A stretch of DNA of 64,000 nucleotides from Nitrosopumilus sp. Lineage in GTDB: Archaea; Thermoproteota; Nitrososphaeria; Nitrososphaerales; Nitrosopumilaceae. Positions 2,012 through 43,380 of this stretch are shown here, piece after piece. Each line of letters begins with the position of its first letter. The first letter of the stretch is position 1. The stretch spans positions 1,600,001 to 1,664,000 of the forward strand of contig OZ242220.1 in NCBI GenBank assembly GCA_965206745.1, written 5' to 3'. The translations under genes were made by a program, and so were the position numbers. The notes under the pieces are model-generated. The model was not told where the DNA came from. It was given only the letters and a program-made list of their open reading frames with translations, and ran no database searches.

Positions 2012-2058
2012 GGCTCTGATCAAATATGGTAATCAGATCACCGTTTGTGACCCGAACC
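2012..2058. repeat. 47-bp imperfect palindrome (dispersed repeat B)
   Basis: ggctctgatcaaatatggtaatc-a-gatcaccgtttgtgacccgaacc; arms pair 16/23; homologous copies at 22523, 28848, 32372, 36475. Confidence 0.75.
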
Positions 2059-2495: not shown

Positions 2496-3629
2496 ATGAA
2501 CAAAAGAGCTCGAAGAGCAAATCAGATCATGGAACTGCCAAACTTATTTGTCATACTCAGGAAAGGGGAGTATCAGGTAAGATCACAGTTTAATCATGAT
2601 TTATCCTACATTGTAAAAAGCACAGGTTTGGGTCTGGTGTGTGAGTGTCCAGATCACCAAAGACGAAGGTCCGACTGCAAGCACATCAAGGTGGTTCTAT
2701 GTCACATCAAGGAAAACAAGATTGAAAACAATGCCTTTAGAATGATGGAGAGAAACGAGGTAAAAATATGCAGATACTGTGATTCTGGAAACATCAAGAA
2801 AAATGGTATTGCAAGAAACAAATTAAGAAATATTCAGATGTTCAAATGCAGAGATTGTGGTAAGAAATTCCGAGATAATCTTGGATTTGAGAGAATGAGG
2901 CATGATCCAACTGTTATAATTCAAAGTATAAGAAAATTGAACTCAAAAATGTCCACAAGGGCAATAGCAGATGATTTTGAGCAGGACAATAGGACTCTAT
3001 CTCATATGAGTGTGTATCGCTGGATAGGAAAATATTCTAATCTGATATTTGATTATGCAAGAACAATAACCCCAAGACTATCTGAAAAATGGAGAACTGA
3101 TGAATTGTACGCAAAATTCAGCGGTAAGGGAAAATGGGTCTATACCATGATGGATGATGAAACCCGATTCATGATTTCCCAACAAATTTCAGATACAAAA
3201 TATACAGAAGATGTAACCCCCATGTTTAGGGATGCGAGTAAATGGGCAGGTATGATTCCCCATACTTTGATTTCTGATGGAGCTCCAAACTTTCACAACA
3301 TATGGAAATTGGAATGGAGACAAAAAAATCAATATCGAAAACTGACTTCACATATTCGTCATATTCATCTTGCAGGAGATATGAACAATAACAAGATGGA
3401 AAGACTGAATGGAACAATGAGGGATTGGGAACAAACCAGACGAGGTCTGAAAAAGATGAATAGTCCCATGTTCAAGGGATTTATGATTTTTTATAATTTT
3501 GTCAAGAAACATGGGGGACTGGATGGAAAAACACCGGCAGAAGAAGCCTTGATTCACGTTATTGGGAAAAATAAATTACTGACCCTGATTCAAAATGCAA
3601 GTTTGGAGAAAAGCAGAAATGCCTTTTAG
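2496..3629 (+). mobile_element. IS6-like DDE transposase with N-terminal SWIM Zn finger and Zn ribbon
   Basis: CECPD..CKH (SWIM); CRYC..CRDC ribbon; WRTDE, ISDG, NNKMERLNG = DDE triad; YNF..H..L..KTPAE C-terminus. Confidence 0.85.
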
Positions 3630-11190: not shown

Positions 11191-12354
11191 TTATTTATTT
11201 AATTCCATTTTGCTATAATTACCATCATCATCAAAATAATGACACTTCCATAAACCACAATTATTAAACACTTCATCCATTATTGATGAAGTTATTTTAC
11301 TAAAATCACTTTGAAGTTGCTCTACATTATATTGCCTTTTAATTGCAATATGATTATTTTCTGATTTGAAAGTAGAGCCAAACAATCTACGAGGAGATTC
11401 GATGCATAATTTTCTGGAGGTATTTTTCAAACAGATGAAAATTTCTACCTCATCAAAATAATTATGTTTTGATAATATAACATATGCAAACTGTAAAACA
11501 TGCATGATTCTTATTGCTAGGAGTGAATCTCTTATGTATACACCAACCAGATCATCATCTCTAAAATATCCCAAATCAGCACAATAATGAATGCAGCCAT
11601 TTCTATGAATTTCTAGGTTCGCTCTATCATCTTTATGTATCACACCATGTTTACTAGGTATTGAATGGGAGGGTAAAAAACTATGATGTGGTGCAAAGCT
11701 AAAACCAGCAGGTTCAAAATTTATTCTGTTAGGATCAAGCCAGTCAAATTCTTCAGGATTAGTTGTTTGTATCAATTGCTTATCTATAATAGATGGAATA
11801 ACAACAATTTGTAGTAAAACTTTTTCATGATTATAAATATCTGTAATTTTATCAAGATATTTTTTTGTATTTTGAAGTAAATAAGATCTATTTTTGTACA
11901 TTGAAGATATTTCTTGTTCGGACATTGGTGTTGATGTAAATTCAAAACGTTTGTAAAACTTGTTGTTCTTATTGTTGTAATGTGGTTTATGACCGCTGTC
12001 AGGTACTTGAAGAATTAAGAAAAGATTGTCATTTTGTTCATTTTCTATTGTATGTATCTTTACATGAAGCCGTGGCTGGATGTTAGACAATATTATTTGC
12101 TCTATTCTTTCTTTATTGATGGGAGCTTTGATACCCTCTGTTGCTATCGGATGACCGCCCTTGCCTGATTCTTTAATACCAAATACAATATAACCACCAC
12201 GAGTGTTTGCAAATGCACTTACATGCTTTACTAGTGCATCATCATCCATCATCTCTTCCTTGTAATCAAGCATATCACTTTCTGGAATTTTATCATTTAG
12301 GAGAAATTGCACATCATTGTAATCTAAATCATCTATATTTTTTTGAAATATCAC
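11191..12354 (-). CDS. Schlafen/AlbA_2 domain protein
   Basis: ESDMLDYKE..VSAFANTRGGYIVFGIKE..KPH..FYKR. Confidence 0.85.
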   Translation of the reverse strand: MIFQKNIDDLDYNDVQFLLNDKIPESDMLDYKEEMMDDDALVKHVSAFANTRGGYIVFGIKESGKGGHPIATEGIKAPINKERIEQIILSNIQPRLHVKIHTIENEQNDNLFLILQVPDSGHKPHYNNKNNKFYKRFEFTSTPMSEQEISSMYKNRSYLLQNTKKYLDKITDIYNHEKVLLQIVVIPSIIDKQLIQTTNPEEFDWLDPNRINFEPAGFSFAPHHSFLPSHSIPSKHGVIHKDDRANLEIHRNGCIHYCADLGYFRDDDLVGVYIRDSLLAIRIMHVLQFAYVILSKHNYFDEVEIFICLKNTSRKLCIESPRRLFGSTFKSENNHIAIKRQYNVEQLQSDFSKITSSIMDEVFNNCGLWKCHYFDDDGNYSKMELNK

Positions 12355-22522: not shown

Positions 22523-22569
22523 GACCATACTCACAAACGGGGATCTGATCACTATATTTGAGCAGAGCT
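22523..22569. repeat. Dispersed repeat B copy
   Basis: tcacaaacggggatc-t-gatcactatatttgagcagagc. Confidence 0.7.
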
Positions 22570-23601: not shown

Positions 23602-24441
23602 TCAGTCAAATACTGACCATTTTTCCGGATATCTTTCTCTTAATTTATCATACATTGCCTCTAATTTATCAGACTCCATACCGTGATCTACGATTCTGCG
23701 AATCTCCCTAAAATCATCATAATAAGAGGTAAAGGATTTATCGGATTCGCTAGTATTTTTCCTTGCATCAGCACGTCCTTTCTTATCTTTTTTTAAATTG
23801 GCATAGGCATAATTCTGACCTGCCAACTCATGGCTTAAATCAATACATTTTCGATAAAGAAAATTTAGACATGACCCAATTTTATCATGCAGTTCTGGAT
23901 ATTGTTTTTCAACTTTAGAGAGGATTCGATCATACTCCTCATGCATCAATGTTTGCCTAAACATGGCAATGGCAGAAGTATTGGGCATCGTGTGGTTTGC
24001 ATAAGATTCCAACTCCTCAGACAGATGCTCCAACAGATCAACTAGATCAGTTTGGAACTTGTGAGGGTGTCCTTTGAATGTCTCCTCTATGCTACTAGCT
24101 GATTCTGTTATGCGCTTGGTTATTTTTTTCAAATCATCGGTCAGCTCCTCAGAGGTCTTTGATGTGGTTGGGATCCATTGAATATTTTTTCCCGATTCGT
24201 CATATTTGATTTTTTTATCCTCTACAAGGTCATCACAGTATTTTTTCAATGTTTTTCTGTCACACATATCATCCACAATACAGAGTTCCTTGCGCAACTC
24301 TACATCAGATATACCATGTATCGACTTGACTGTACGACATATTCTGTCCTTGATCCTTTTTTCCGTATTTATACCCAAGATATGGACACTTTTACCAGTG
24401 CCGTATATTATTTCTTGGAATTTTGTCCTTGTTGAATCCAT
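23602..24441 (-). CDS. Winged-helix N-terminal domain + helical C-terminus, putative regulator
   Basis: GISDVELRKEL..DRKTLKKYCDDLVEDKKI wHTH pattern; likely start MDSTRTK. Confidence 0.55.
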   Translation of the reverse strand: MDSTRTKFQEIIYGTGKSVHILGINTEKRIKDRICRTVKSIHGISDVELRKELCIVDDMCDRKTLKKYCDDLVEDKKIKYDESGKNIQWIPTTSKTSEELTDDLKKITKRITESASSIEETFKGHPHKFQTDLVDLLEHLSEELESYANHTMPNTSAIAMFRQTLMHEEYDRILSKVEKQYPELHDKIGSCLNFLYRKCIDLSHELAGQNYAYANLKKDKKGRADARKNTSESDKSFTSYYDDFREIRRIVDHGMESDKLEAMYDKLRERYPEKWSVFD

Positions 24442-24469
24442 GTATAACGGAAAGAGCTTGGTACAATAC

Positions 24470-24583
24470 ATGAGCAAAAATGTTCAATCAGCATCCCGTG
24501 CTGGAAAAGGAAAAGGAGGAAAACCTTCTGGCACAGGCAAGCCCTCTGGTGGCGGACGAGACAACAATCCACTAGGAAAATAA
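24470..24583 (+). CDS. 37-aa Gly/Lys-rich microprotein
   Basis: MSKNVQSASRAGKGKGGKPSGTGKPSGGGRDNNPLGK, immediately followed by a terminator hairpin. Confidence 0.5.
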   Translation: MSKNVQSASRAGKGKGGKPSGTGKPSGGGRDNNPLGK

Positions 24584-24591
24584 GCCCATAT

Positions 24592-24625
24592 CCTGCTAGG
24601 ATTATTCCTAGCAGGGCTTTTTTTT
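24592..24625 (+). terminator. Hairpin + T-tract terminator
   Basis: cctgctagga-ttat-tcctagcagg perfect 10-bp stem, then gc and T8. Confidence 0.75.
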
Positions 24626-24832: not shown

Positions 24833-26641
24833 TTATCTTAACCACCAAAACCAATCAAATTTAGATAATGCAGGTGTGGAATCAGATTTGGAATGAGTAT
24901 TTTGTTTTTGAAATTTTGTATTTTGAATCTTCTTGAGAATATCATCTAAATGTGTTTTTTCAGAAATAATTTTCTTGGTTAATTTAGAATTTACATCATC
25001 TGCTCTAAAGTCAGATAGATGATTAAGGCAAATAGTTAGTTCGTCTAATATATCAAAAGATATGTTTTGGAATTGATAAAAATCTAAATCAGAATTCCAT
25101 AAAAGTTTCAATTTGTCATTTTTGACTATATTTTCTTCAAGAAAATTGTCTATGGGTGTTGAAAATGTCTTAGTTAATGCAAGGATTAGTTCTGGTGGGG
25201 CATCATTACAAAATACAGGATTTGGATAAATTTCATGGACAAGTTTTTTAATATGTTTTAAATTATCTAAAGAAGATATTGTCAAGTTAATTCTAGTGAG
25301 AATATTTTCTAATAATTCAAAATTATTGTTAATACATAATTTTATCACCATTTGGATCTTTTTTTCATAATTAATGTTTGGAAAATCCTCTAGTTTCAAA
25401 AATTTTATAATTTGAGGATTTAACCTCTTTGTAGTTATAAAAATTTTAAAAATATTTTCTTGATATTTAGAACGTGAACCGGCAACTTCATCCAGAAATT
25501 TGACTCCTTTTTCTTTAACCTCGTTCTTTCTTTTATTGAGAATATTCTTCAATACCTTATTTATTAAATAAGGATCTTGTTTTTCTACCTGCTTTAAAAT
25601 ATTTTCAATTGGATACAAGCCCAAATGGTAATCTTCTGTACTTTGAAGCAGTTGCTCAGTATTAATTTTTGCAAGTAATTTGGGATTTCTTGGATCTCCC
25701 GCATATTTTTTTGCGTTATTGAGATACACGGATGCTGATTTCAAATGCAGTTTACTTGCAGCTTTTGCACATTCCAAGTAATATCTTGCTTTTTTTGTCG
25801 ATTCAGTTGTTTGTTTTGAAAGATTTTCATAATTTAATAATTTAAATTTGTCAAATTTAGATTCTCCTTCAATTTTATTAAATTCTGTATTGAATTCATG
25901 AATTTTGGATTTATTTTTTGTATAAATAATATGTGAAAAGTATGTTACATCTTTGAATCTAATATATGAGTCATCTTTGTTTGAAAATCCAACCACGGTC
26001 CATCGTTTATCTGTAAGATCAATTTTATCATAAGGAATTTGAATAAAATCATATGTAGTTTGTCTTTTTGTATCTGTAACCAGTGTTGAAAATGAAAGTA
26101 ATCTCATAGGCATAGGCAATGCAACTAAAAGATTTTGAATGGCAGATATTGACTCAATATTAGCATAAGCAATTTTTTTCTTTGAAATTATCCCATGAAA
26201 AATTTTATTCAAAATCCCTTCTGAAATTCCAGAAAAAGCACTAAAATCAATTGGGACAGGTGAAGACTTGATTTGTATGGGTTCTAATTTTCCAGATAAA
26301 TTAGAATCTTCTATAAAATAATTATCAAATATTCTTGAATCATTTTCAATTTTTTCAAAATCTTCTTTATCAAAAATAAACGTGTGATTGTACAACGTTC
26401 CACGTCTAGCATCATAACCGACGCCGATATTTTTAATGATGCTATAAGCAATTTTATTCTTGAAAATTAATTGAGAACGTGATTCTTGAAATTTTTCTAA
26501 ATTTGTTCCAATTGGATAATAATATCCTGATAGTTCAGAAAGTATCTCATTTGAAATGCCGTTGCTTTTTGCTATAATTTGATAACCTTCTTTTTCATCA
26601 GTCTTTGCCGACGTATAAATAAAATGATCACATGAAAACAA
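24833..26641 (-). CDS. GAP1-N2-like domain protein (GTPase-associated conflict system component)
   Basis: HFIYTSA..GYQIIAKS.GI..G.D..R.G.LY.HTFI and LP..MR.LSFST patterns; coupled to GTPase. Confidence 0.65.
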   Translation of the reverse strand: MFSCDHFIYTSAKTDEKEGYQIIAKSNGISNEILSELSGYYYPIGTNLEKFQESRSQLIFKNKIAYSIIKNIGVGYDARRGTLYNHTFIFDKEDFEKIENDSRIFDNYFIEDSNLSGKLEPIQIKSSPVPIDFSAFSGISEGILNKIFHGIISKKKIAYANIESISAIQNLLVALPMPMRLLSFSTLVTDTKRQTTYDFIQIPYDKIDLTDKRWTVVGFSNKDDSYIRFKDVTYFSHIIYTKNKSKIHEFNTEFNKIEGESKFDKFKLLNYENLSKQTTESTKKARYYLECAKAASKLHLKSASVYLNNAKKYAGDPRNPKLLAKINTEQLLQSTEDYHLGLYPIENILKQVEKQDPYLINKVLKNILNKRKNEVKEKGVKFLDEVAGSRSKYQENIFKIFITTKRLNPQIIKFLKLEDFPNINYEKKIQMVIKLCINNNFELLENILTRINLTISSLDNLKHIKKLVHEIYPNPVFCNDAPPELILALTKTFSTPIDNFLEENIVKNDKLKLLWNSDLDFYQFQNISFDILDELTICLNHLSDFRADDVNSKLTKKIISEKTHLDDILKKIQNTKFQKQNTHSKSDSTPALSKFDWFWWLR

Positions 26642-26643
26642 GA

Positions 26644-27636
26644 TTAGTCATTTAGGTTTTCATCTAACCATGAAATAAATTTAACATATTCATCTTCGCT
26701 GTAGGACAACGGTATTTTGACTTTATACGTAAATTCTTGTTTTTTTACTTCTGAAGTGCCAGCTGGTGGAGTAATTAAAGTAGGCTTTCCAGAACGTGTA
26801 GAAGCCTTTGCATTGTATAGAGAAGGATATGGAGTGCCTGATTCTATCTTAATTTTAATTGGTTTATTATCTGAACCACGTTCCACATCCAGATATACCT
26901 TAAAAAATCCAACATCTTTTGTAACCATTCCTTTCATGTGACGATAAAATTCTGGCATGTGTTTTTTTAGTAAATCTTCTGCAGTCAGTATTCTATTTTT
27001 TTCATCAAGAAGATCAGTTTTTGTGAACATGATTGCAATTGGATTGTTAATTTTACCATCCTTTGATTCATTGATTGATTGTTTTAATGCAAGAATTTTA
27101 TTAAGTAAAATCATATTATCAAAAGATTGGTCTTTCCACAATTCGATCTTTTGACAATCAATTAAGAGGACATATACTTTCGAAAAAATCAGAAATGAGT
27201 AAGGGCTAAATTTAGTACCTTTCTGTTTTTCATAATTGATAATTCTAGTAGCTAATGAGGAGGCATCCATCTCATTAGTAAAAAAATAATCATTTAATTC
27301 TCCTGCAAAATCATTTAATCTAAGTTCAATTTCACCACCACTTGCTTTCTTTTGTTTAAGAATCATTTGAACTTGTTTGATTTCGGATTCTGCAGTCTTT
27401 TCTGGAAATTTCCCTCCTTTTAATGACATACTGTTTGCTTTCATATGTTCAATTCCATTTTTTATTCTAAAATCATATTCTGGATGATCTTCAAGAAATT
27501 TGTTAATTATTGTATCAAGTAATAAAGCTCCAACGATTGTTTTGCCAGTTTTTAGAGAACCAAGAATTGAAATAATTTTTTGGTTTTCAAATGATTTTTT
27601 AGCAATATCCAAAGAAGATATATTTTCTTTACTCAA
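26644..27636 (-). CDS. TRAFAC-class GTPase (double-GTPase/DO-GTPase-like)
   Basis: G1 GSLKTGKT, G2 PEKT, G3 DFAGE, G4 TKTD. Confidence 0.8.
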   Translation of the reverse strand: MSKENISSLDIAKKSFENQKIISILGSLKTGKTIVGALLLDTIINKFLEDHPEYDFRIKNGIEHMKANSMSLKGGKFPEKTAESEIKQVQMILKQKKASGGEIELRLNDFAGELNDYFFTNEMDASSLATRIINYEKQKGTKFSPYSFLIFSKVYVLLIDCQKIELWKDQSFDNMILLNKILALKQSINESKDGKINNPIAIMFTKTDLLDEKNRILTAEDLLKKHMPEFYRHMKGMVTKDVGFFKVYLDVERGSDNKPIKIKIESGTPYPSLYNAKASTRSGKPTLITPPAGTSEVKKQEFTYKVKIPLSYSEDEYVKFISWLDENLND

Positions 27637-27674
27637 ACAATATCAATTCCATTATGTGTTTAATAAGGATTAAT

Positions 27675-28664
27675 TTATTTGCTTATCATTTCTCTGTATT
27701 TTGCTATGTCTCGAACATAGAAACTTTTGCTTTTTTTATCCTGATTATCAGTAATTGCGATACTGATACGAATCACCCCTACTCCATCATATTTTTTTCC
27801 AAATCTTGAAGGTGCAGGATTCGCTTTCTCATATTCTACAAATGCATTAGTGCCTTTTATGATGGCATCATCAATTTGTTTTATCGTAGAATATCCTAAT
27901 TCTTTCAATTGCTGAGTAATTTCTAAAATTGACGATGGTATAGATTCAGGTCGACTAGTAAATTTTTGTTTGATATATTGAGTTAACGGTTCTAATTTGC
28001 AAGGTTGACCAAGAAGATCTTCACCGATATCAATTTTTAATTTTTGCTCTTGTGAATTATAATATGTGTCAAATCTTTGATCAACAAAAAAGAATAAACT
28101 ACTAATTGCATACATTTCTCTACGGAAATTTTCATTTAATTCAACTTTTTTGTATAGAGTATCATGTGAAACATTAGCCCATGCATGCATTAATTCAGTT
28201 CGTATTTGGATTTCACATTGAGTTTTCAATATATCTGGCCAAAGAAACAGATCTGATTTTGAAACAGAATTATTTGATAATTTGAGAATATAATGATCAG
28301 ATCGATAGCCGGATTCACTTACTCTTTCAGAAAAACTATGTTGTTTTTTTTGAATTACATTGAAGTTATCTTCAATTAATTTATCAATTTCTTCCAACTC
28401 TGAATAATACAAACAAATTACACGAATTCCAATAAAATCTTCCATATTGATGAAATAATTATTATTTATTTGCTTACGTATAATTTTATTATAAAATGAT
28501 TCAAAACTTTTTATTCTTTTTCGTAAATTAAAATTTTTAATATTTGTTAAACCAATTTTAGCAGTAAGAATTTCTTCAACTTTATTCATAGCTGGTTCGA
28601 ATATTTTTTTTTGTTGATTATATTCATCATTCAGAGATTGTTCATCTGGAGCACTAAAACCCAT
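27675..28664 (-). CDS. RelA/SpoT-domain small alarmone synthetase-like nucleotidyltransferase
   Basis: RIKSFESFYNK, EDFIGIRVI, SGYRSDHY, EIQIRTELMHAWA..H..LYK all intact; extra C-terminal domain. Confidence 0.85.
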   Translation of the reverse strand: MGFSAPDEQSLNDEYNQQKKIFEPAMNKVEEILTAKIGLTNIKNFNLRKRIKSFESFYNKIIRKQINNNYFINMEDFIGIRVICLYYSELEEIDKLIEDNFNVIQKKQHSFSERVSESGYRSDHYILKLSNNSVSKSDLFLWPDILKTQCEIQIRTELMHAWANVSHDTLYKKVELNENFRREMYAISSLFFFVDQRFDTYYNSQEQKLKIDIGEDLLGQPCKLEPLTQYIKQKFTSRPESIPSSILEITQQLKELGYSTIKQIDDAIIKGTNAFVEYEKANPAPSRFGKKYDGVGVIRISIAITDNQDKKSKSFYVRDIAKYREMISK

Positions 28665-28733
28665 ATATTTTTCAATAGTGCCAATTTTTTAAATTTATCT
28701 TTTTTCGATATTACTGTGTTTATGAGAACATGA

Positions 28734-28894
28734 TATATGGATCTTATTTCAACTCAAAAAAACTCGCTCACCCTAGAATTTCTATCAAAAGGATTAACTT
28801 GTCGTGTGTTAAACACTAGATACAGATCCTCTTCTGATTCAATTACTGATTCTGGGAGATTTTGGTGATCTGATCATCATTTGTGACCAGAGCC
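28734..28894. repeat. Motif A (28734-28762) plus composite A+B (28821-28894)
   Basis: atatggatcttatttcaactcaaaaaa; tacagatcctcttctgattcaa..ggtgatc-t-gatcatcatttgtgaccagagcc. Confidence 0.7.
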
Positions 28895-28920
28895 TAGATT
28901 TTTTTTAGCGTAATGAAAGA

Positions 28921-31900
28921 TCATCGTAACAAATCTCTATAGTCATAACTTGATCGTAATAGATGATCGATGATTTTCTTGCAAATATCTCTAACGCCAT
29001 CATGATTATCTTTCAATAATGATTCTAAGAGATTTTTAATTTCTGGTTTAGGGATGTATGCACTATTTCGTTTTTCAACAAGCAATTTTAGACATTCAGC
29101 CACAAGTATAGAATATTTGGGAATATATTTTTCCAATTTTGAGAATTTGATATAAATTAAGTTGAATTTTCCTTCATAACGCTCAAGGTAATCACGATAT
29201 AATTTTATCGTAGTTTCGTCATCTAGAGGGCTGTTTGTAAACCATTCATATAATTGAGCATGTTTTGAAAATGATTCATGATTCCAAAGTTTTTTTAATT
29301 TTTCTTTATTAAATTTCTGATCATTCTTTTTACCTTTAATTACATTAGCTATTTGGAATACACAGTGTTGAATTGGTGCCTCGTAATCATTTTCCTCATC
29401 TGTTATCTCTTTGTTCTCTACTAAAAATTGTTCAAAATATGCATCGACTTTATCAAAATCATAAAAATATGCCAAAATCATGTGATCGATTGTGGAATTA
29501 TACGCAGCGTGTGCTTTGTTATCCCTTAACAAATCAGAATTAAGCATTTTTGCATACCACGTAGGTATTTTCTTAAAAATATCAGTATACAATTTGTTAT
29601 AACGCACATAACACTCCCAAAAAGCAATCTTTAATTTTTTATCGGATTCAATTTTCTCTAATATTTGATCAAATAATTCTTTATCCAAATAATAAAAACT
29701 CGGCAAATACAAACCAAATACTGCATGACGTGAAATTGTCTGTCTGATAAATTTTTTATCAAGATAATTATCCAGAATCTGCTTTATCCTTGGCTCTATG
29801 AATTTTTTGCCATCACTATGTTTGCGGTGCCATAATAAATAATTGGCAAGTATATGAAAAGATACACCATCCATACCATTAATACAGACTGTTAAAGCAT
29901 CATCCGCAAAATTTTCTCCTAGATAATTATCACTCGATGGGTTTTTTGTCCCAATCTCTACAATGCATTCTAAGATTGACAACAATCTATCCTTATGGAT
30001 AAAATCAATGTAATCTTCTTTTAATGCAGTTTCCAGCAATTGAGAAAATTTCAATATTGGATCATATGATGTTGATCTATACTTTTCATCATCATGGTTT
30101 TTGATCAGATATTTGATTAACGATAATATCCCATCCCAATTAATTTCATTTTTATCTTTAAGGGCATTTTTTATGTTAGAAAAAAATTCATAAAGCAAAT
30201 AGGGCGCTATGTCCTTTAGCTCAATTGCTCTCTTTGAGCATTCCAAGGTATTATTTTTTACATAATCTCCAAAATTCACAGCTCGTATATCATCACGTGC
30301 ATATATTCCAGAATTTAATTTCAAAGTTTTGGCAATCTCAAACACATCATCTACTGATTTATGTCTAAAATCATCAGATGGTTTAGGTGGTTCCATAACT
30401 GAGACTCTTACAGGAGGATGTAAAGATTCAGGCGTATCAATCGATCCAAGTTCTTTTTCTAATTCATCAAATATTTGTTTGTGTTTTTTATCAAGATATT
30501 TTTTAATCGATGTTAGTTGTCTTAATTTACAGGATTTTTGTAGGTATATCTCTTCTTCAGCAAATTTGATCTTTTTTGGAATTTCTTCATCAGAATATCC
30601 ATCAATGATCATCTCAAGAATTTTCTCTCTGATACAATTAGAAACATTGCCAAACATCTTTTCAATTAGATTGTAATACTCGTGATATGCATCTATATTC
30701 TTAAAATATAGTAATAATGACAGCTCTATCTGAGGTTTAAACGCATCAGGAAATACTGAAAATATATGCAATTCAATTCTTCGGTATATCAGATATTTTT
30801 TTCCATTTAGTATACTCATACAATTTTTTAAGATGGAAATGTCTTTTTTGCCAAGTTCTACAAGGCATATCCGGAGTTTGCTGACAAAGGGGGATTTTAT
30901 ATCGGTATTCCTGTTCTGTTCGTCATCTTCAATTGCAGATCTCCAATATGTGACAGACATTTGTGCATCCATTCCAAAATGATCTATATCAAGAGCCTTT
31001 TCCAACAGATCGGAGATCAATTTAATGGTTAATTTTGGATGTTTAGAGGATATGTCAGATATTAAATCAGAAAAATACTCGTTATACCAAAATTCTGTAA
31101 ACGGATAGATTGCTTGCTTAGAATTAGGTTGTTCCCAAAGATCTGAAGACGTCTCCGATGAGATGGGATTAAAAATGAGTTCAAATATCTTTGTTGCAAG
31201 ATCTGATTCATTTTCTAAAAATAATTTCTTTACAAACTGTGAATATTTTTCAGTAAACAAATGATCTTGCGTATAGCCAGATTGGATAAAATCATACCAA
31301 TTCTCATCTAGTGATTTTTGGGCAATTTTTAATGCATGAGTAATTGGCAAAGTAATTGCACATGAAAGAAAATCTTCATAGATTCTAGGGTTACGTTTCT
31401 TTTTACTTTTAAATTTACAATCTAAAATTATCTGTGTGACTAGATCTGGATATTCTTTTACACATTTAATTAAATAAGCAGATGGGGCCCAAAAATAATA
31501 AACAAGTTTGCCATCTTCAGAAATAGATCCTGAGGGATTATCAAAAAATCCAACCTTTTTTAGAAATTCTAACCACTTTTCAGATAGTTTATCAAACATA
31601 TGAATAACTGATGCATAAGGCACAGCAAGATGTTTTAATTTCTCGGCATCTTTTATGGAAGGCGAATGCGTGATAATCTTATCAATTTCATCAAAAATAT
31701 CTGTTGGGGGTTGAACTAGTTCTGCTATAATTTTCCCAACATCGTCAAGTTTTGATATTAAATCATCTTCATCATCTATTGTACCATGATGTACAATACC
31801 ATTAAGGTAGCGATATTCATTAACTAACCTATCATAACGAGAATCATTTGAAATAGATCCCTGTCCTTTTAGATCTATAACCTGTTTGAGCAAGAATATA

Positions 31901-32139
31901 CGTTCACTATGATCTATTGGTTTTCTTCGTTCACCTGAATTCGTCATATTTTTCTTTGTCAACAAATCAATCACTTCACGCAACGAATGTGCAAAATGAA
32001 CTAATCTTTCAGGATTGTCTATGTGTTTTAATGCATAAATTGCGCCTAAATATGGTTCCTGTAATCTATCATAGAATTCCGATATTGTAATACAGATTTT
32101 CTTTTGTTCGGGAGTACAATGTCTAAAATCAACCGTCAA
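28921..32139 (-). CDS. Large protein: N-terminal HEPN-like domain + long alpha-helical repeat region
   Basis: NPERLVHFAHSLRE..YRYLNGIVHH; WRSAIEDDEQN and all-helical C-terminus; no Walker A found. Confidence 0.7.
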   Translation of the reverse strand: MTVDFRHCTPEQKKICITISEFYDRLQEPYLGAIYALKHIDNPERLVHFAHSLREVIDLLTKKNMTNSGERRKPIDHSERIFLLKQVIDLKGQGSISNDSRYDRLVNEYRYLNGIVHHGTIDDEDDLISKLDDVGKIIAELVQPPTDIFDEIDKIITHSPSIKDAEKLKHLAVPYASVIHMFDKLSEKWLEFLKKVGFFDNPSGSISEDGKLVYYFWAPSAYLIKCVKEYPDLVTQIILDCKFKSKKKRNPRIYEDFLSCAITLPITHALKIAQKSLDENWYDFIQSGYTQDHLFTEKYSQFVKKLFLENESDLATKIFELIFNPISSETSSDLWEQPNSKQAIYPFTEFWYNEYFSDLISDISSKHPKLTIKLISDLLEKALDIDHFGMDAQMSVTYWRSAIEDDEQNRNTDIKSPFVSKLRICLVELGKKDISILKNCMSILNGKKYLIYRRIELHIFSVFPDAFKPQIELSLLLYFKNIDAYHEYYNLIEKMFGNVSNCIREKILEMIIDGYSDEEIPKKIKFAEEEIYLQKSCKLRQLTSIKKYLDKKHKQIFDELEKELGSIDTPESLHPPVRVSVMEPPKPSDDFRHKSVDDVFEIAKTLKLNSGIYARDDIRAVNFGDYVKNNTLECSKRAIELKDIAPYLLYEFFSNIKNALKDKNEINWDGILSLIKYLIKNHDDEKYRSTSYDPILKFSQLLETALKEDYIDFIHKDRLLSILECIVEIGTKNPSSDNYLGENFADDALTVCINGMDGVSFHILANYLLWHRKHSDGKKFIEPRIKQILDNYLDKKFIRQTISRHAVFGLYLPSFYYLDKELFDQILEKIESDKKLKIAFWECYVRYNKLYTDIFKKIPTWYAKMLNSDLLRDNKAHAAYNSTIDHMILAYFYDFDKVDAYFEQFLVENKEITDEENDYEAPIQHCVFQIANVIKGKKNDQKFNKEKLKKLWNHESFSKHAQLYEWFTNSPLDDETTIKLYRDYLERYEGKFNLIYIKFSKLEKYIPKYSILVAECLKLLVEKRNSAYIPKPEIKNLLESLLKDNHDGVRDICKKIIDHLLRSSYDYRDLLR

Positions 32140-32304: not shown

Positions 32305-32418
32305 AGGTTCTGTGTAATCTTGGGGATATAGATGTGAAATACGGATCTTATTCTGATTCAAAAAACCCCTTGGTTCTGTTCACAAATAGTGATCTGATCA
32401 CTATATTTAATCAGAGCC
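32305..32418. repeat. Most complete composite dispersed repeat (leader + motif A + 47-bp palindrome B)
   Basis: aggttctgtgtaatcttgggga..gaaatacggatcttattctgattcaaaaaacccc-tt-ggttctgttcacaaatagtgatc-t-gatcactatatttaatcagagcc; B arms pair 18/23. Confidence 0.8.
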
Positions 32419-36884: not shown

Positions 36885-37811
36885 GTGTTGGGATTTTTTG
36901 ATGCCATTAAAAAGAGCAGAAGGCAGGTGAGTCGGGAGAATCAGAGTCAGGGCAGGGCAGGCGAGAAGAAGATTCGTGAAAAATATGAGATGACAGGATA
37001 CAAGGTGACAAGGACCGGGAAGGGGCACGACCTCAAGGCAGAAAAAAAGGACTGGTTCACCGGGGAGAACAGGGCAAAGTACATCGAGGTCAAGACAGGA
37101 AACTCTAAACTCTCCAAGCTTCAAAAGAAAAAACAGGGACAGATCGGGGGCAAGTATGTTGTTGAACGTCTCAAACCCACGACGTTTGGACTGGTTTCAA
37201 ACAACCGTGAATCAGATTCACGCTCCAAGAAGTCAAAGTCATCTGGCTTTGGCAGTCCTGTTACTTGGGGGTCTGGCTCTACGAAGAAGAAGAAATCAGG
37301 CGGTATATTTGGATCCAGTACAGTTGATTCCATCTTTGGTTCGAGTTCAAAAAAGAAATCCAAGAGTAAGTCAGTTAGTATGTTTGGATCTAGTACAGTT
37401 GATTCCATCTTTGGTTCGAGTTCAAAAAAGAAATCCAAGAGTAAGTCAGTTAGTATGTTTGGATCTAGTACAGTTGATTCCATCTTTGGTTCGAGTTCAA
37501 AAAAGAAATCCAAGAGTAAGTCAGTTAGTATGTTTGGATCTAGTACAGTTGATTCCATCTTTGGTTCGAGTTCAAAAAAGAAATCTAAAAGTAAAAAGTC
37601 AGTCAGTATGTTTGGATCTAGTACAGTTGATTCCATCTTTGGCTCAGGTTCAAAAAAGAAGTCCAGGAAAAAGAAATCAGTTAGTATGTTTGGATCCGGT
37701 TCAGTTGATTCCATCTTTGGTTCGAGTTCAAAAAAGAAGTCCAGGAAAAAGAAATCAGTCAGTATGTTTGGATCATCAAAAAGAAACAAGAAAGATGTAG
37801 GAATCTGGTAG
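36885..37811 (+). CDS. Restriction-endonuclease-fold (DUF3883/NOV_C-like) domain + Lys/Ser-rich tandem repeat tail
   Basis: GRAGEKK..GY.V..TGKGHDL..YIEVKTG; six 25-26-aa repeats FGSSTVDSIFGSSSKKKSKSKSVSM. Confidence 0.7.
   Translation: MLGFFDAIKKSRRQVSRENQSQGRAGEKKIREKYEMTGYKVTRTGKGHDLKAEKKDWFTGENRAKYIEVKTGNSKLSKLQKKKQGQIGGKYVVERLKPTTFGLVSNNRESDSRSKKSKSSGFGSPVTWGSGSTKKKKSGGIFGSSTVDSIFGSSSKKKSKSKSVSMFGSSTVDSIFGSSSKKKSKSKSVSMFGSSTVDSIFGSSSKKKSKSKSVSMFGSSTVDSIFGSSSKKKSKSKKSVSMFGSSTVDSIFGSGSKKKSRKKKSVSMFGSGSVDSIFGSSSKKKSRKKKSVSMFGSSKRNKKDVGIW
37308..37784 (+). repeat. In-frame coding tandem repeat, 75/78-bp units, 6 full + partial
   Basis: Unit starts at 37308, 37383, 37458, 37533, 37611, 37689, 37767. 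Confidence 0.9.
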
Positions 37812-42093: not shown

Positions 42094-43380
42094 ATGAGAT
42101 ATGAGAGTTTAAATGATCCACGATCTGAATTTCTTAAACAAGTTCAAAAAACATCTAATTGGTTTAAGAATGTTGAAATTTCTTTAGTGATTGTAAAAGA
42201 AGAAGGAAAGAATTTGTTAGTTGCAGGTAATGCGATCTTTGTTCACAAAAATGATGAAAACAGAAAAGAGATAACATATGACTATGACCGAGTAGTTTTA
42301 GCTAGAAGAATTTTGGAGATTGATGAATTCATCAAGTTATTTCCATCTAAACCTTCAAACACATTAGACATCAAAGATCTAGAGGCTATTTTTCTTGGAA
42401 CAGGTTTTGACCATGGCGTTTATCACATTCCCAGCAATTCTAAAGGATTTGATATGTTATTTGATTGGTCATCTAGAGTGTATCTATATGTGAGTGATCA
42501 AAGCACTTCCTATGATAGCGGATGGGATTTTCTTGTCAAACCTAACTGTCCCCCATTTCCTAATTTGAATGACGCAATAGATTCATTCTTAGATAAAGAG
42601 CATGCCCTTAGAGATCATCGTATTGATGGTCTAAAAATTATTTTGCCTGATTATCATGCACGTATCAAAGATATCGTAATATCTGATAACAGTATTTCAG
42701 TTGAAATAGAATCTAGAGAAATTAATCAAGATCAACTAATTTTTAAAATAAATGCCAAATATGGCCAAAAGCAATTTTTGTCTGAGGATATTTACATAGA
42801 TCAAAAGATCATTTACGTAAAAATCCCATTTAAACCTGAAACCATGTACTTATTTTTGATTGACAAGACTAATGGCAGTCTTTTTGATTTTGTAGAGTAT
42901 GGAAATTACACTACAGATCGTGTTAAACATATCACAATCAAAACATCCTCTGAATTAATTGAATCTTTGATTACCAAGGGAGAGAACAAAAATATTGAGT
43001 TAAAACGTAAAATAGGTTCTGAATTCTTAGAATCTGTAGGGGCTTTTGCAAATACTGAAGGTGGAAAAATTATTCTAGGCGTGGATGATCGTCAAAATAT
43101 TGTTGGGATTCATGATGATTTCTCAAAGTTGGAAAAACAAATTCGAGGTACAATTAATGGTAGAATTCAACCTCAAATAGAGGTGAATGTTGAGTTAATT
43201 GAAATTCGTCAAAGTCCTGTTGTGGTTGTTACCGTTCCTAATGGTAAGAACAAACCTTACTTGTTAGATGGAGTTGCATATATCCGAAATGACGAAGCAG
43301 ATGTGGCAATGGGTAGATCTGAATTAGATGCAATATACCATTCTAGATATTCTGTGAATAGAGACTCTGATCAAGATTAG
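42094..43380 (+). CDS. Protein with C-terminal Schlafen/AlbA_2 domain
   Basis: GENKNIELKR..VGAFANTEGGKIILGVDD..KPY..YIR. Confidence 0.8.
   Translation: MRYESLNDPRSEFLKQVQKTSNWFKNVEISLVIVKEEGKNLLVAGNAIFVHKNDENRKEITYDYDRVVLARRILEIDEFIKLFPSKPSNTLDIKDLEAIFLGTGFDHGVYHIPSNSKGFDMLFDWSSRVYLYVSDQSTSYDSGWDFLVKPNCPPFPNLNDAIDSFLDKEHALRDHRIDGLKIILPDYHARIKDIVISDNSISVEIESREINQDQLIFKINAKYGQKQFLSEDIYIDQKIIYVKIPFKPETMYLFLIDKTNGSLFDFVEYGNYTTDRVKHITIKTSSELIESLITKGENKNIELKRKIGSEFLESVGAFANTEGGKIILGVDDRQNIVGIHDDFSKLEKQIRGTINGRIQPQIEVNVELIEIRQSPVVVVTVPNGKNKPYLLDGVAYIRNDEADVAMGRSELDAIYHSRYSVNRDSDQD

Follow-up and report, generated by a model that had tools for sequence, protein, structure and literature searches.

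The side-by-side placement of a RelA/SpoT-type synthetase gene, a GTPase gene and a GAP1-N2 gene raises the question of whether the three products form one system and, if so, what that system would do. The window analyzed here, a 64,000-nucleotide stretch of Nitrosopumilus sp. DNA, carries these genes (A, B and C) on the minus strand, with gaps of 38 bp between A and B and 2 bp between B and C, as read directly. On balance, and with considerable reserve, the trio appears to be a single GTPase-switched anti-virus system of the DO-GTPase plus GAP1 kind, in which the RelA/SpoT-type pyrophosphokinase serves as the output. An archaeal host, considered probable in the initial annotation of this DNA, is supported by relatives in the Nitrosopumilaceae, reached via a homolog named Ca. 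Nitrosopumilus sediminis.

Layout of the Locus

The features discussed below are the following.

27675..28664, minus strand: gene A, RelA/SpoT-type small synthetase with a helical C-terminal domain (CTD), 329 aa, ATG start
27678..28037, minus strand: CTD of A, residues 210-329, located by hhalign, phmmer and profile search
26644..27636, minus strand: gene B, DO-GTPase-family TRAFAC GTPase, 330 aa, TTG start
24833..26641, minus strand: gene C, GAP1-N2-type protein, 602 aa, TTG start
28665..28920, minus strand: 256-bp intergenic region 5' of A, presumed promoter region
24576..24620, minus strand: possible operon terminator, a 9-bp-stem inverted repeat (CCTGCTAGG / CCTAGCAGG) followed by a T-rich run
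28921-32139: gene D, Dsr1-like protein of 1072 aa, just upstream of A

An A/T-rich, TATA-like stretch lies approximately 20-35 nt ahead of the ATG of A, inside the putative promoter region. The candidate terminator sits approximately 220 nt downstream of C and could equally serve the convergent plus-strand ORF at 24206-24583. Rfam and tRNA scans of the window returned no matches. The RelA/SpoT, GTPase and GAP1-N2 identities and the operon-like layout proposed at the outset are upheld by the ORFs, the gaps and the Pfam matches; A and B score above the Pfam cut-offs, and the near-threshold score of C is backed by its homologs.

The Three Proteins

Gene A matches the Pfam family RelA_SpoT (PF04607) at 79.3 bits (cut-off 27) over residues 49-173, with the synthetase occupying residues ~1-209 and the CTD residues ~210-329. 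In a 62-sequence alignment, R50, K52, S56 and K60; D76, G79 and R81; G119, Y120, S122 and H124; and E151, Q153, R155 and T156 are either fully conserved or conserved in at least 90% of sequences, and H167, Y171 and K172 are invariant or nearly so. The first four groups we take to be the basic R/K-x-K-x3-S-x3-K motif, D-x-x-G-x-R, the G-Y-x-S-x-H G-loop and E-I-Q-x-R-T. The predicted model of A has the three-dimensional fold of small alarmone synthetases, with RelQ and RelP as the closest folds; CapRel (7ztb_A) aligns to residues 5..197 of the model only, and the CTD is all-helical. By profile, motifs and fold, A is a RelA/SpoT homolog synthetase, for which pyrophosphate transfer is predicted.

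The protein encoded by B matches Pfam DO-GTPase1 at 29.2 bits (cut-off 27) and DO-GTPase2 at 24.6 bits; among its relatives, 26 of 27 match DO-GTPase2 and 22 of 27 match DO-GTPase1 (E<=0.01). Invariant across these 27 sequences are G26, G31 and K32 of G1, T81 of G2, D109 and G112 of G3 together with the Walker-B glutamate E113, and K206 and D208 of G4. DO-GTPases are defined as TRAFAC GTPases with a conserved Walker-B glutamate in the main text of the survey that described them (PMC7159879), and B combines the conserved E113 with the Pfam match. It carries neither a zinc ribbon nor a transmembrane (TM) segment, and a search of PDB sequences with its profile gave P-loop-level matches only, with E above 1e-3. 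The conservation of catalytic residues in the 62- and 27-sequence alignments agrees with the earlier reading that the synthetase motifs and GTPase motifs G1, G3 and G4 are intact.

Gene C matches GAP1-N2 at 23.7 bits, just below the cut-off of 24, and 26 of its 48 homologs have a precomputed PF20013 match. Its product consists of an alpha/beta DENN-like module (residues 1 to ~300), helical repeats (~300-580) and a disordered tail; C has no further Pfam family at E<=1, and GAP1-M and GAP1-C were not detected. The predicted fold of residues 1 to ~300 superposes on a longin plus DENN module over ~250 residues, and this resemblance to DENN guanine nucleotide exchange factors (GEFs) fits a role as a GTPase regulator. 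The eukaryotic DENN-module Rab GEFs (DENND1A/B-Rab35, DENND10) may share this fold with C, which is tied to its GTPase genetically.

Recurrence of the Trio and Its Sister Systems

Linkage of the RelA gene to the GTPase-GAP1 pair extends beyond this window, and the initial annotation had named the lack of any such linkage in other genomes as grounds for abandoning its proposal. Genes A, B and C occur in the same order and on the same strand in a same-genus genome (locus L030) and in two loci from metagenomes (L130 and L132), both with a 4-nt overlap between A and B. The latter are both of the type-1 (RelA-containing) metagenome loci that include upstream sequence, L131 being too short. One ENA contig probably also carries the trio, as close homologs of A (65%) and C (72%) are both listed with a longest contig of 27,894 bases. 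Pairwise identity among the trios is 39-65% for A, 42-51% for B and 33-72% for C; with the exception of the ENA pair (65-72%), the proteins are 33-51% identical across copies. A tree of 62 sequences groups the five A proteins from trios in a clade of their own (support 0.999). The L030 copy has its GTPase gene broken into two ORFs, which may reflect decay of this copy or a fault in the assembly. No longer protein containing A, and no A-B or A-C fusion, was found, which is weak evidence.

The B-C pair itself is more widely distributed within the archaeal family, where it is adjacent and co-oriented in 20 of 20 loci. The upstream slot of these loci is filled by a RelA-CTD protein in one, a ~700-aa wHTH-MNT-CTD protein (type 2) in nine, a pentapeptide-repeat protein in eight and other proteins in two. 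In the C tree as in the B tree, each of the three slot types corresponds to a clade, some with low support (0.46-0.68). Judged by the presence of a slot gene in front of every B-C pair and by the way its type tracks both trees, the upstream slot belongs to the system.

Solitary Relatives of A and a Shared CTD

The setting of A in this lineage differs from that of its wider family. The RelA-CTD gene is solitary, with variable neighbors, in all 80 other genome loci; no B- or C-like ORF lies within 7 kb of it in any of the 80, and neither GAP1-N2 nor DO-GTPase2 was found anywhere in five bacterial genomes that carry it. The family is widespread and normally autonomous. Because these solitary genes lack a GTPase and GAP1, the enzyme can in general do without a GTPase, an adaptor role toward GAP1 cannot be the whole account of the CTD, and the GTPase pair is best seen as a layer added in this lineage rather than a general requirement. 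Ten loci on (pro)viral contigs also hold relatives of A; no relatives of C were found on viral contigs.

A also matches the PADLOC profile PDC-S33 (E 2.4e-20, for which PADLOC supplies no curated cut-off), with residues 18-263 aligned to positions 40-284 of 349. PDC-S33 is described as one of 145 untested phage defense candidates (bioRxiv 10.1101/2024.01.29.577857). The solitary genes of the wider A family are as expected of a single-gene candidate, whereas A itself sits in a conserved putative operon with a GTPase and GAP1.

The CTD links A to other effectors. An hhalign comparison of A3 with A1 gave a probability of 98.2 and an E-value of 3.9e-14, with the CTD as the sole region aligning, and the domain is common to the type-1 (RelA) and type-2 (~700-aa wHTH-nucleotidyltransferase) upstream proteins. 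A CTD profile search collected 726 representatives at E<=0.001; according to Pfam searches with 35 of them, the CTD is rarely joined to TIR or TPR proteins, and it is also seen fused to a CAP12/Pycsar-type TIR domain. From the presence of the CTD in both slot types and in the TIR fusion, the RelA domain emerges as an effector that can be exchanged. The pentapeptide-type systems have no CTD, so there is no single coupling principle. For the CTD, the highest-scoring ESM Atlas match (0.77) is no more than a lead. As newly delimited here, the CTD is a novel helical domain.

Defense-Island Context

In addition to the trio, the window encodes Hachiman, DndA-E, an OLD/GajA-like protein, a type I restriction-modification S subunit and the Dsr1-like protein. 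The GC content of the trio is 0.277, compared with 0.412 for the genome, and falls within the lowest 0.3% of genome windows; RelA_SpoT is found in 12 of 231 family genomes, and C-like genes in 20 of 401 class genomes. The trio resides in a horizontally acquired anti-virus gene island. The defense context that had been suspected from the trio is borne out by the PDC-S33 match and by the defense genes across the window.

Proposed Mechanism and Alternative Explanations

For the single A-B-C system we infer the binding events, which component controls which, what triggers it and what it makes. With its N-terminal longin/DENN-like module, C would bind the GTPase B and set the nucleotide state of B, while the C-terminal helical repeats of C would sense a cue derived from the invader. 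A would dock on the B-C core, and the switched GTPase would release or activate it. A may then move pyrophosphate from ATP onto a purine nucleotide, yielding (pp)pGpp or (pp)pApp and draining nucleotide pools; alternatively, it may modify the 3' CCA end of tRNA, like CapRel and FaRel2. The nucleotide product is slightly favored over tRNA because the fold of A is closest to RelQ/RelP. Either output would halt growth and virus replication. A more specific version, which we consider unlikely though far from negligible, holds that GAP1 is a prokaryotic longin/DENN-type exchange regulator of its DO-GTPase, that the pair gates the RelA/SpoT enzyme and that the CTD plugs RelA, MNT or TIR effectors into the sensing machinery.

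Complex prediction lends weak support to the proposed docking of A. For A against B plus residues 1-258 of C, the score was 0.55 (runs 0.44, 0.63 and 0.55), which lies in the weak band, in a three-chain job with custom alignments that differs from the calibration set. At least 32% of contacts recur between runs, with partner pLDDT of at least 76, and the controls, including one in which B was replaced, reached a best of three of 0.00. In the calibration, 58 of 80 solved complexes and 2 of 110 mismatched pairs scored at or above the mark; only 7 of those 80, and both of the mismatches that passed, did so with 0.60 or less. Prediction of A against B plus C also returned no interface.

Instead of one system, the locus may hold two independent neighbors, adjacent only through the tendency of defense genes to cluster and to move as a group. 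One would be an autonomous, PDC-S33-like RelA-CTD defense gene whose CTD does the sensing, much as the C-terminal domain of CapRel does, and the other a separate GTPase-GAP1 pair. The solitary RelA-CTD genes with variable neighbors in 80 of 80 other loci, the lack of GAP1-N2 or DO-GTPase2 in all five RelA-CTD genomes, the 38-bp gap between A and B and the dense defense island in the window all suit such clustering. It is nevertheless improbable, given that order and strand are kept at approximately 35-45% identity in at least three further loci, with 4-nt A/B overlaps in two, that the trio-linked A proteins form an exclusive clade, that every sister GTPase-GAP1 pair has a co-oriented slot gene whose type follows the B and C trees, and that the weak-pass complex score falls to 0.00 on replacing B. 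Control could also run in the reverse order, with RelA-CTD sensing infection and making (p)ppGpp, (p)ppGpp switching B, and the B-C complex responding. Many TRAFAC GTPases bind (p)ppGpp, solitary RelA-CTD members must sense unaided, and the closest folds to A are the (p)ppGpp synthetases RelQ and RelP. However, B and C contain no recognizable effector domain, and TIR, to which the CTD is also joined, is a domain typical of terminal effectors. Moreover, an MNT-type nucleotidyltransferase or a pentapeptide protein replaces RelA in sister systems, so the GTPase cannot generally depend on ppGpp, and a reversed order is slightly less probable still than chance neighbors.

A physiological role outside immunity has the smallest likelihood of these alternatives. 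By analogy with Obg-SpoT in bacteria, the trio would be a stress module in which a GTPase-regulated alarmone synthetase tunes growth to the nutrient or energy state. The sporadic occurrence of RelA_SpoT (12/231 family genomes) and of C-like genes (20/401 class genomes), the very atypical GC content of the trio, the known defense systems that flank it and the sharing of the CTD with a TIR effector all speak against housekeeping. The HD_4 hydrolase is likewise not coupled to the trio, as it is present in 120 of 231 genomes yet missing from the other trio genome (G108); for the same reason it was rejected as a partner antitoxin.

Relation to Known Systems and Significance

GAP1-N2-type DO-GTPase ("GTPase-centric") conflict systems are a computational prediction, described as "present in a few archaea" (PMC7159879). 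According to the main text of that survey, they share with the trio a DO-GTPase that carries the Walker-B glutamate and has a GAP1 gene encoding GAP1-N2 immediately downstream (C begins 2 bp after B), and a constant GTPase-GAP1 core with a variable third component. In contrast, the archaeal trio has a single GTPase and no FNIII-repeat protein, zinc ribbon, TM segment, or tubulin, HSP70 or kinase theme. Its variable part is a RelA/SpoT enzyme, and that of its sisters a wHTH-MNT or pentapeptide protein, none of which is listed in the main text of PMC7159879. The FNIII-repeat protein had no match among the 39 window proteins scanned or the scanned neighbors of family loci; because of this absence, the trio is a variant of the predicted GAP1 systems and not a canonical member. 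In that survey (Kaur, Burroughs, Iyer and Aravind, eLife 2020; PMC7159879), the main text names RelA for vWA-MoxR systems alone. No description of a RelA/SpoT, DO-GTPase and GAP1 combination was found in the literature, represented for Kaur et al. (2020) by the main text. CapRel(SJ46), FaRel, FaRel2 and Tas1, the toxSAS enzymes described in PMC11782079, likewise combine a small RelA/SpoT synthetase with a C-terminal helical or regulatory region and act as growth-arresting effectors in defense or conflict, the role proposed for A.

GTPase-centric GAP1 systems are known from one computational survey alone, as predictions. A compact, soluble three-gene archaeal version with an easily assayed enzyme offers a tractable entry to the role of the DO-GTPase-GAP1 switch and to what the CTD module senses or binds. 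The trio also bears on a possible immune use of RelA/SpoT chemistry in archaea, a group for which (p)ppGpp signaling is largely undocumented. Should the DENN-like fold of GAP1 hold, it would have implications for how eukaryotic GTPase regulators arose. Were GAP1 gating to prove true, the trio would represent the first immune pathway, here in archaea, in which a GTPase switch controls alarmone synthesis (or tRNA pyrophosphorylation), and a prokaryotic counterpart of the eukaryotic DENN-Rab pairing.

Flanking Repeats and Neighboring Gene D

The initial annotation had placed repeats of one motif on both flanks of the trio. The copy upstream of A stands (28865-28893, a 29-nt palindrome), but on the other side the next copy (22540-22568) lies 2.3 kb past C, with ORFs in between. 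The palindrome is a dispersed repeat with 19 matches genome-wide, compared with 0 for the reversed control, and a role as operon boundary was rejected because it is scattered across the genome. The 15-nt word AAAATCTAGGYYCTG, found downstream of both C and D, is not significant, as 14 of 100 shuffles gave at least two matches to a pattern derived from the very two copies being tested. Gene D was rejected as a fourth component, since L030, L130 and L132 contain no D. Among the sister systems, a homolog of D adjoins a type-2 system in locus L031.

The predicted RelA/SpoT-GTPase-GAP1 operon

The feature formed by genes A, B and C is real, conserved and situated among defence genes, in a host genome of 1.86 Mb (99.6% complete). 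The open reading frames and Pfam matches agree with the three co-oriented genes of the initial annotation, separated by 38 bp (A-B) and 2 bp (B-C):

27675-28664, minus strand, gene A, RelA/SpoT synthetase with a helical C-terminal domain (CTD), ORF of 329 aa
26644-27636, minus strand, gene B, DO-GTPase, ORF of 330 aa
24833-26641, minus strand, gene C, GAP1-N2 protein, ORF of 602 aa

Protein A, the sole RelA_SpoT match in the genome (79.3 bits; cut-off 27), also matches the profile of the PADLOC candidate PDC-S33 (E 2.4e-20). B scores 29.2 bits against DO-GTPase1 (cut-off 27) and C 23.7 bits against GAP1-N2, below the cut-off of 24. These borderline calls are made firmer by family-level matches among relatives: DO-GTPase2 and DO-GTPase1 match 26 and 22 of 27 B relatives, respectively, and 26 of 48 C homologues have a precomputed PF20013 match. 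The motifs initially described as intact are conserved across 62 A and 27 B sequences; the synthetase residues are invariant or nearly so, and in B, G1, the switch-I Thr, DxxG followed by a family-specific Glu, and G4 (K206/D208) are invariant.

The window is a defence island, which also contains:

28921-32139, minus strand, Dsr1-like protein, 1072 aa, directly upstream of A
within the window, type I R-M specificity subunit
within the window, OLD/GajA-like protein
within the window, Hachiman HamA/HamB
within the window, DndA-E
within the window, SNF2 helicase

The Dsr1-like protein matches the C-terminal two thirds of PADLOC Dsr1 (E 4.8e-25); no SIR2 match was found in it, and its N-terminus gives only a weak pPIWI-associated-nuclease-like match (21.6 bits, below cut-off). 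The GC content of the trio, 0.277 versus 0.412 for the genome and within the lowest 0.3% of 3.8-kb genome windows, points to horizontal acquisition.

Linkage and co-divergence

The initial annotation would have been refuted by a RelA gene never linked to the GTPase-GAP1 pair in other genomes, but the trio recurs in loci L030, L130 and L132. Among 401 genomes of the class, C matched in 20, its own included, all from one family (19/223, versus 0/178 elsewhere). The name of one homologue, Ca. Nitrosopumilus sediminis, suggests that the family and genus relatives are ammonia-oxidising archaea. In all 20 loci examined, the GTPase and GAP1 genes lie side by side in one orientation. Ahead of the GTPase stands a RelA-CTD gene (type 1, 328 aa) in one locus (L030, a same-genus genome), a ~700-aa protein that combines winged helices with the signature of a minimal nucleotidyltransferase (type 2) in nine, a pentapeptide-repeat protein (type 3) in eight, one of these divergent, and other genes in two. 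A metagenome scan with the C alignment gave 24 loci, among them five more of type 2 and three of type 3; of the type-1 loci, L131 is too short to judge, and the two that reach far enough upstream, L130 and L132, have A-B-C with a 4-nt overlap of A and B. A longest contig of 27,894 bases is listed for both a close A homologue (65% identical) and a close C homologue (72%), which probably lie together on one contig.

This conserved linkage, together with pairwise identities of 39-65% (A), 42-51% (B) and 33-72% (C) and the clades recovered, marks the trio as an old, co-diverging unit. The A proteins linked to a trio, five in all, group in a clade of their own (support 0.999; 62-sequence tree, no rows dropped). 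Each upstream-gene type is a clade in trees of C (first 260 residues) and whole B (supports 0.46-0.99), where L041 falls within type 3. The sister systems are composed as follows:

L031-L038, L040, L135, L138-L140: type 2, ~700-aa protein (winged helices, minimal nucleotidyltransferase and a CTD as in A), ~292-aa GTPase, ~430-aa GAP1
L039, L042-L048, L141-L143: type 3, pentapeptide-repeat protein, GTPase with a coiled-coil insert, GAP1 of ~355-600 aa

A Dsr1-like homologue adjoins the end of a type-2 system in another genome (L031:9644-12893). Several relatives (L030:10093-11084; L031:7299-8178; L145) have a GTPase gene broken into two ORFs that overlap, through either frameshift (decay) or assembly error; among them is L030, from the one further complete genome that has the RelA trio.

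The RelA-CTD family and the CTD module

The RelA-CTD family extends far beyond the trio, and its genes stand alone elsewhere. A genome scan returned 111 A relatives in bacteria and archaea, with 80 loci kept; HMMs built from the archaeal proteins found no B- or C-like ORF within 7 kb of the RelA-CTD gene in any of the 80. The CTD is present in 66 of 79 loci with an A match, neighbouring genes differ from locus to locus, ten A relatives lie on (pro)viral contigs, and searches of five whole bacterial genomes with a RelA-CTD gene gave no GAP1-N2 or DO-GTPase2 match. The solitary loci therefore identify the RelA-CTD enzyme as an autonomous unit, recruited into the GTPase-GAP1 operon by one archaeal lineage.

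In a profile-profile comparison, type-2 proteins and A share only the last ~110 residues (probability 98.2, E 3.9e-14), and phmmer alignments also show this common CTD; it is absent from the pentapeptide proteins of type 3. A CTD profile search gave 726 cluster representatives at E<=0.001. The 35 scanned with Pfam are mostly RelA_SpoT proteins or fragments, with one exception each of a CTD after a CAP12/Pycsar-type TIR (P0196, 424 aa), two CTD stretches before TPR repeats (P0069, 469 aa), and a wHTH-MNT protein. From this company of RelA_SpoT, TIR, TPR and wHTH-MNT, the CTD is a module joined to effector-type domains.

Ten other RelA_SpoT genes of the same archaeal family (L155-L164) have neither a CTD nor a nearby GTPase/GAP1; in L162-L164 a co-oriented 353-356-aa gene lies directly upstream of each, which suggests a different two-gene module. 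Outside the window, the host genome has an HD_4 (SpoT-hydrolase-like) ORF of 201 aa (G000:C1:432137-432505). HD_4 occurs in 120/231 family genomes, a tally that takes in four flagged unpublished, and RelA_SpoT in 12/231, which supports an HD_4 hydrolase uncoupled from the trio.

Structural models

The model of A (pLDDT 91.6) superposes over its first ~205 residues on solved structures, which slightly favours a nucleotide over tRNA as acceptor. One study, however, links the choice of substrate to how the surface around the acceptor site is charged (PMC11782079).

Complex prediction of A against B plus C residues 1-258, with custom alignments, returned no interface. The score was 0.55 (runs 0.44, 0.63 and 0.55), a verdict of weak support. 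For comparison, 58 of 80 solved complexes attained the mark, as did 2 of 110 mismatched pairs; only 7 of these 80 complexes attained it with a score <=0.60, as did the two mismatched pairs. At least 32% of contacts are common to the runs, and partner pLDDT is at least 76; the best of three controls, a B-replaced one included, scored 0.00.

In the C model (pLDDT 90.3) the N-terminal part is alpha/beta, and residues ~300-580 form helical repeats. Its first eight secondary-structure elements run strand-strand-helix-strand-strand-strand-helix-helix, which we take to be the longin topology. Solved chains covering C residues 1-228 are DENN modules only, and further Foldseek matches were DENND1B, TagF and FLCN (E 3e-3 to 3e-2).

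Functional readings and relation to known systems

We consider it somewhat better than an even bet that the trio is a three-component, GTPase-centric defence system with the RelA/SpoT pyrophosphokinase as output, whose control logic, trigger and product we infer. A pair of independent neighbouring systems is an improbable reading. Reversed signalling, in which ppGpp is the ligand of the GTPase, earns slightly less credence still; a non-immune stress module, amid the surrounding defence genes, seems the least probable.

GAP1-N2 systems, mainly of multicellular bacteria, were defined by the co-occurrence of DO-GTPase, GAP1 and FNIII-repeat proteins; zinc ribbons, TM segments and tubulin/HSP70/kinase themes were described as well (Kaur et al., 2020; PMC7159879). 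Compared with that account, the trio shares the GTPase and GAP1-N2 domain but has no FNIII, zinc ribbon, TM segments or tubulin/HSP70/kinase themes; the main text of the paper mentions RelA and pentapeptide repeats for vWA-MoxR systems alone. PDC candidates are predictions awaiting tests (10.1101/2024.01.29.577857). No further literature was found on GAP1-N2, double-GTPase, PDC-S33 or RelA-plus-GTPase defence. The trio is new as a variant, its GTPase-centric kind being known from prediction alone, and it offers three leads: RelA as an effector in archaea, the CTD as a new module, and a GAP1 that resembles DENN.

Other features of the island

Many other island ORFs have no family match. The window also holds:

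11191-12354 (minus), 42094-43380 (plus), 2496-3629 (plus) and 36885-37811 (plus): together, two Schlafen AlbA_2-domain proteins, an IS240-type DDE transposase and an ORF with a Gly/Phe-rich 'Nucleoporin_FG' repeat match

A 29-nt palindromic intergenic motif, GTGATCTGATCAYYATWTTTRAKCAGAGC, stands at window positions 2013-2041, 22540-22568, 28865-28893 and 32389-32417 (4 versus 0 expected; genome-wide 19 versus 0 for a reversed control). This dispersed REP-like element is apparently enriched in the defence island.
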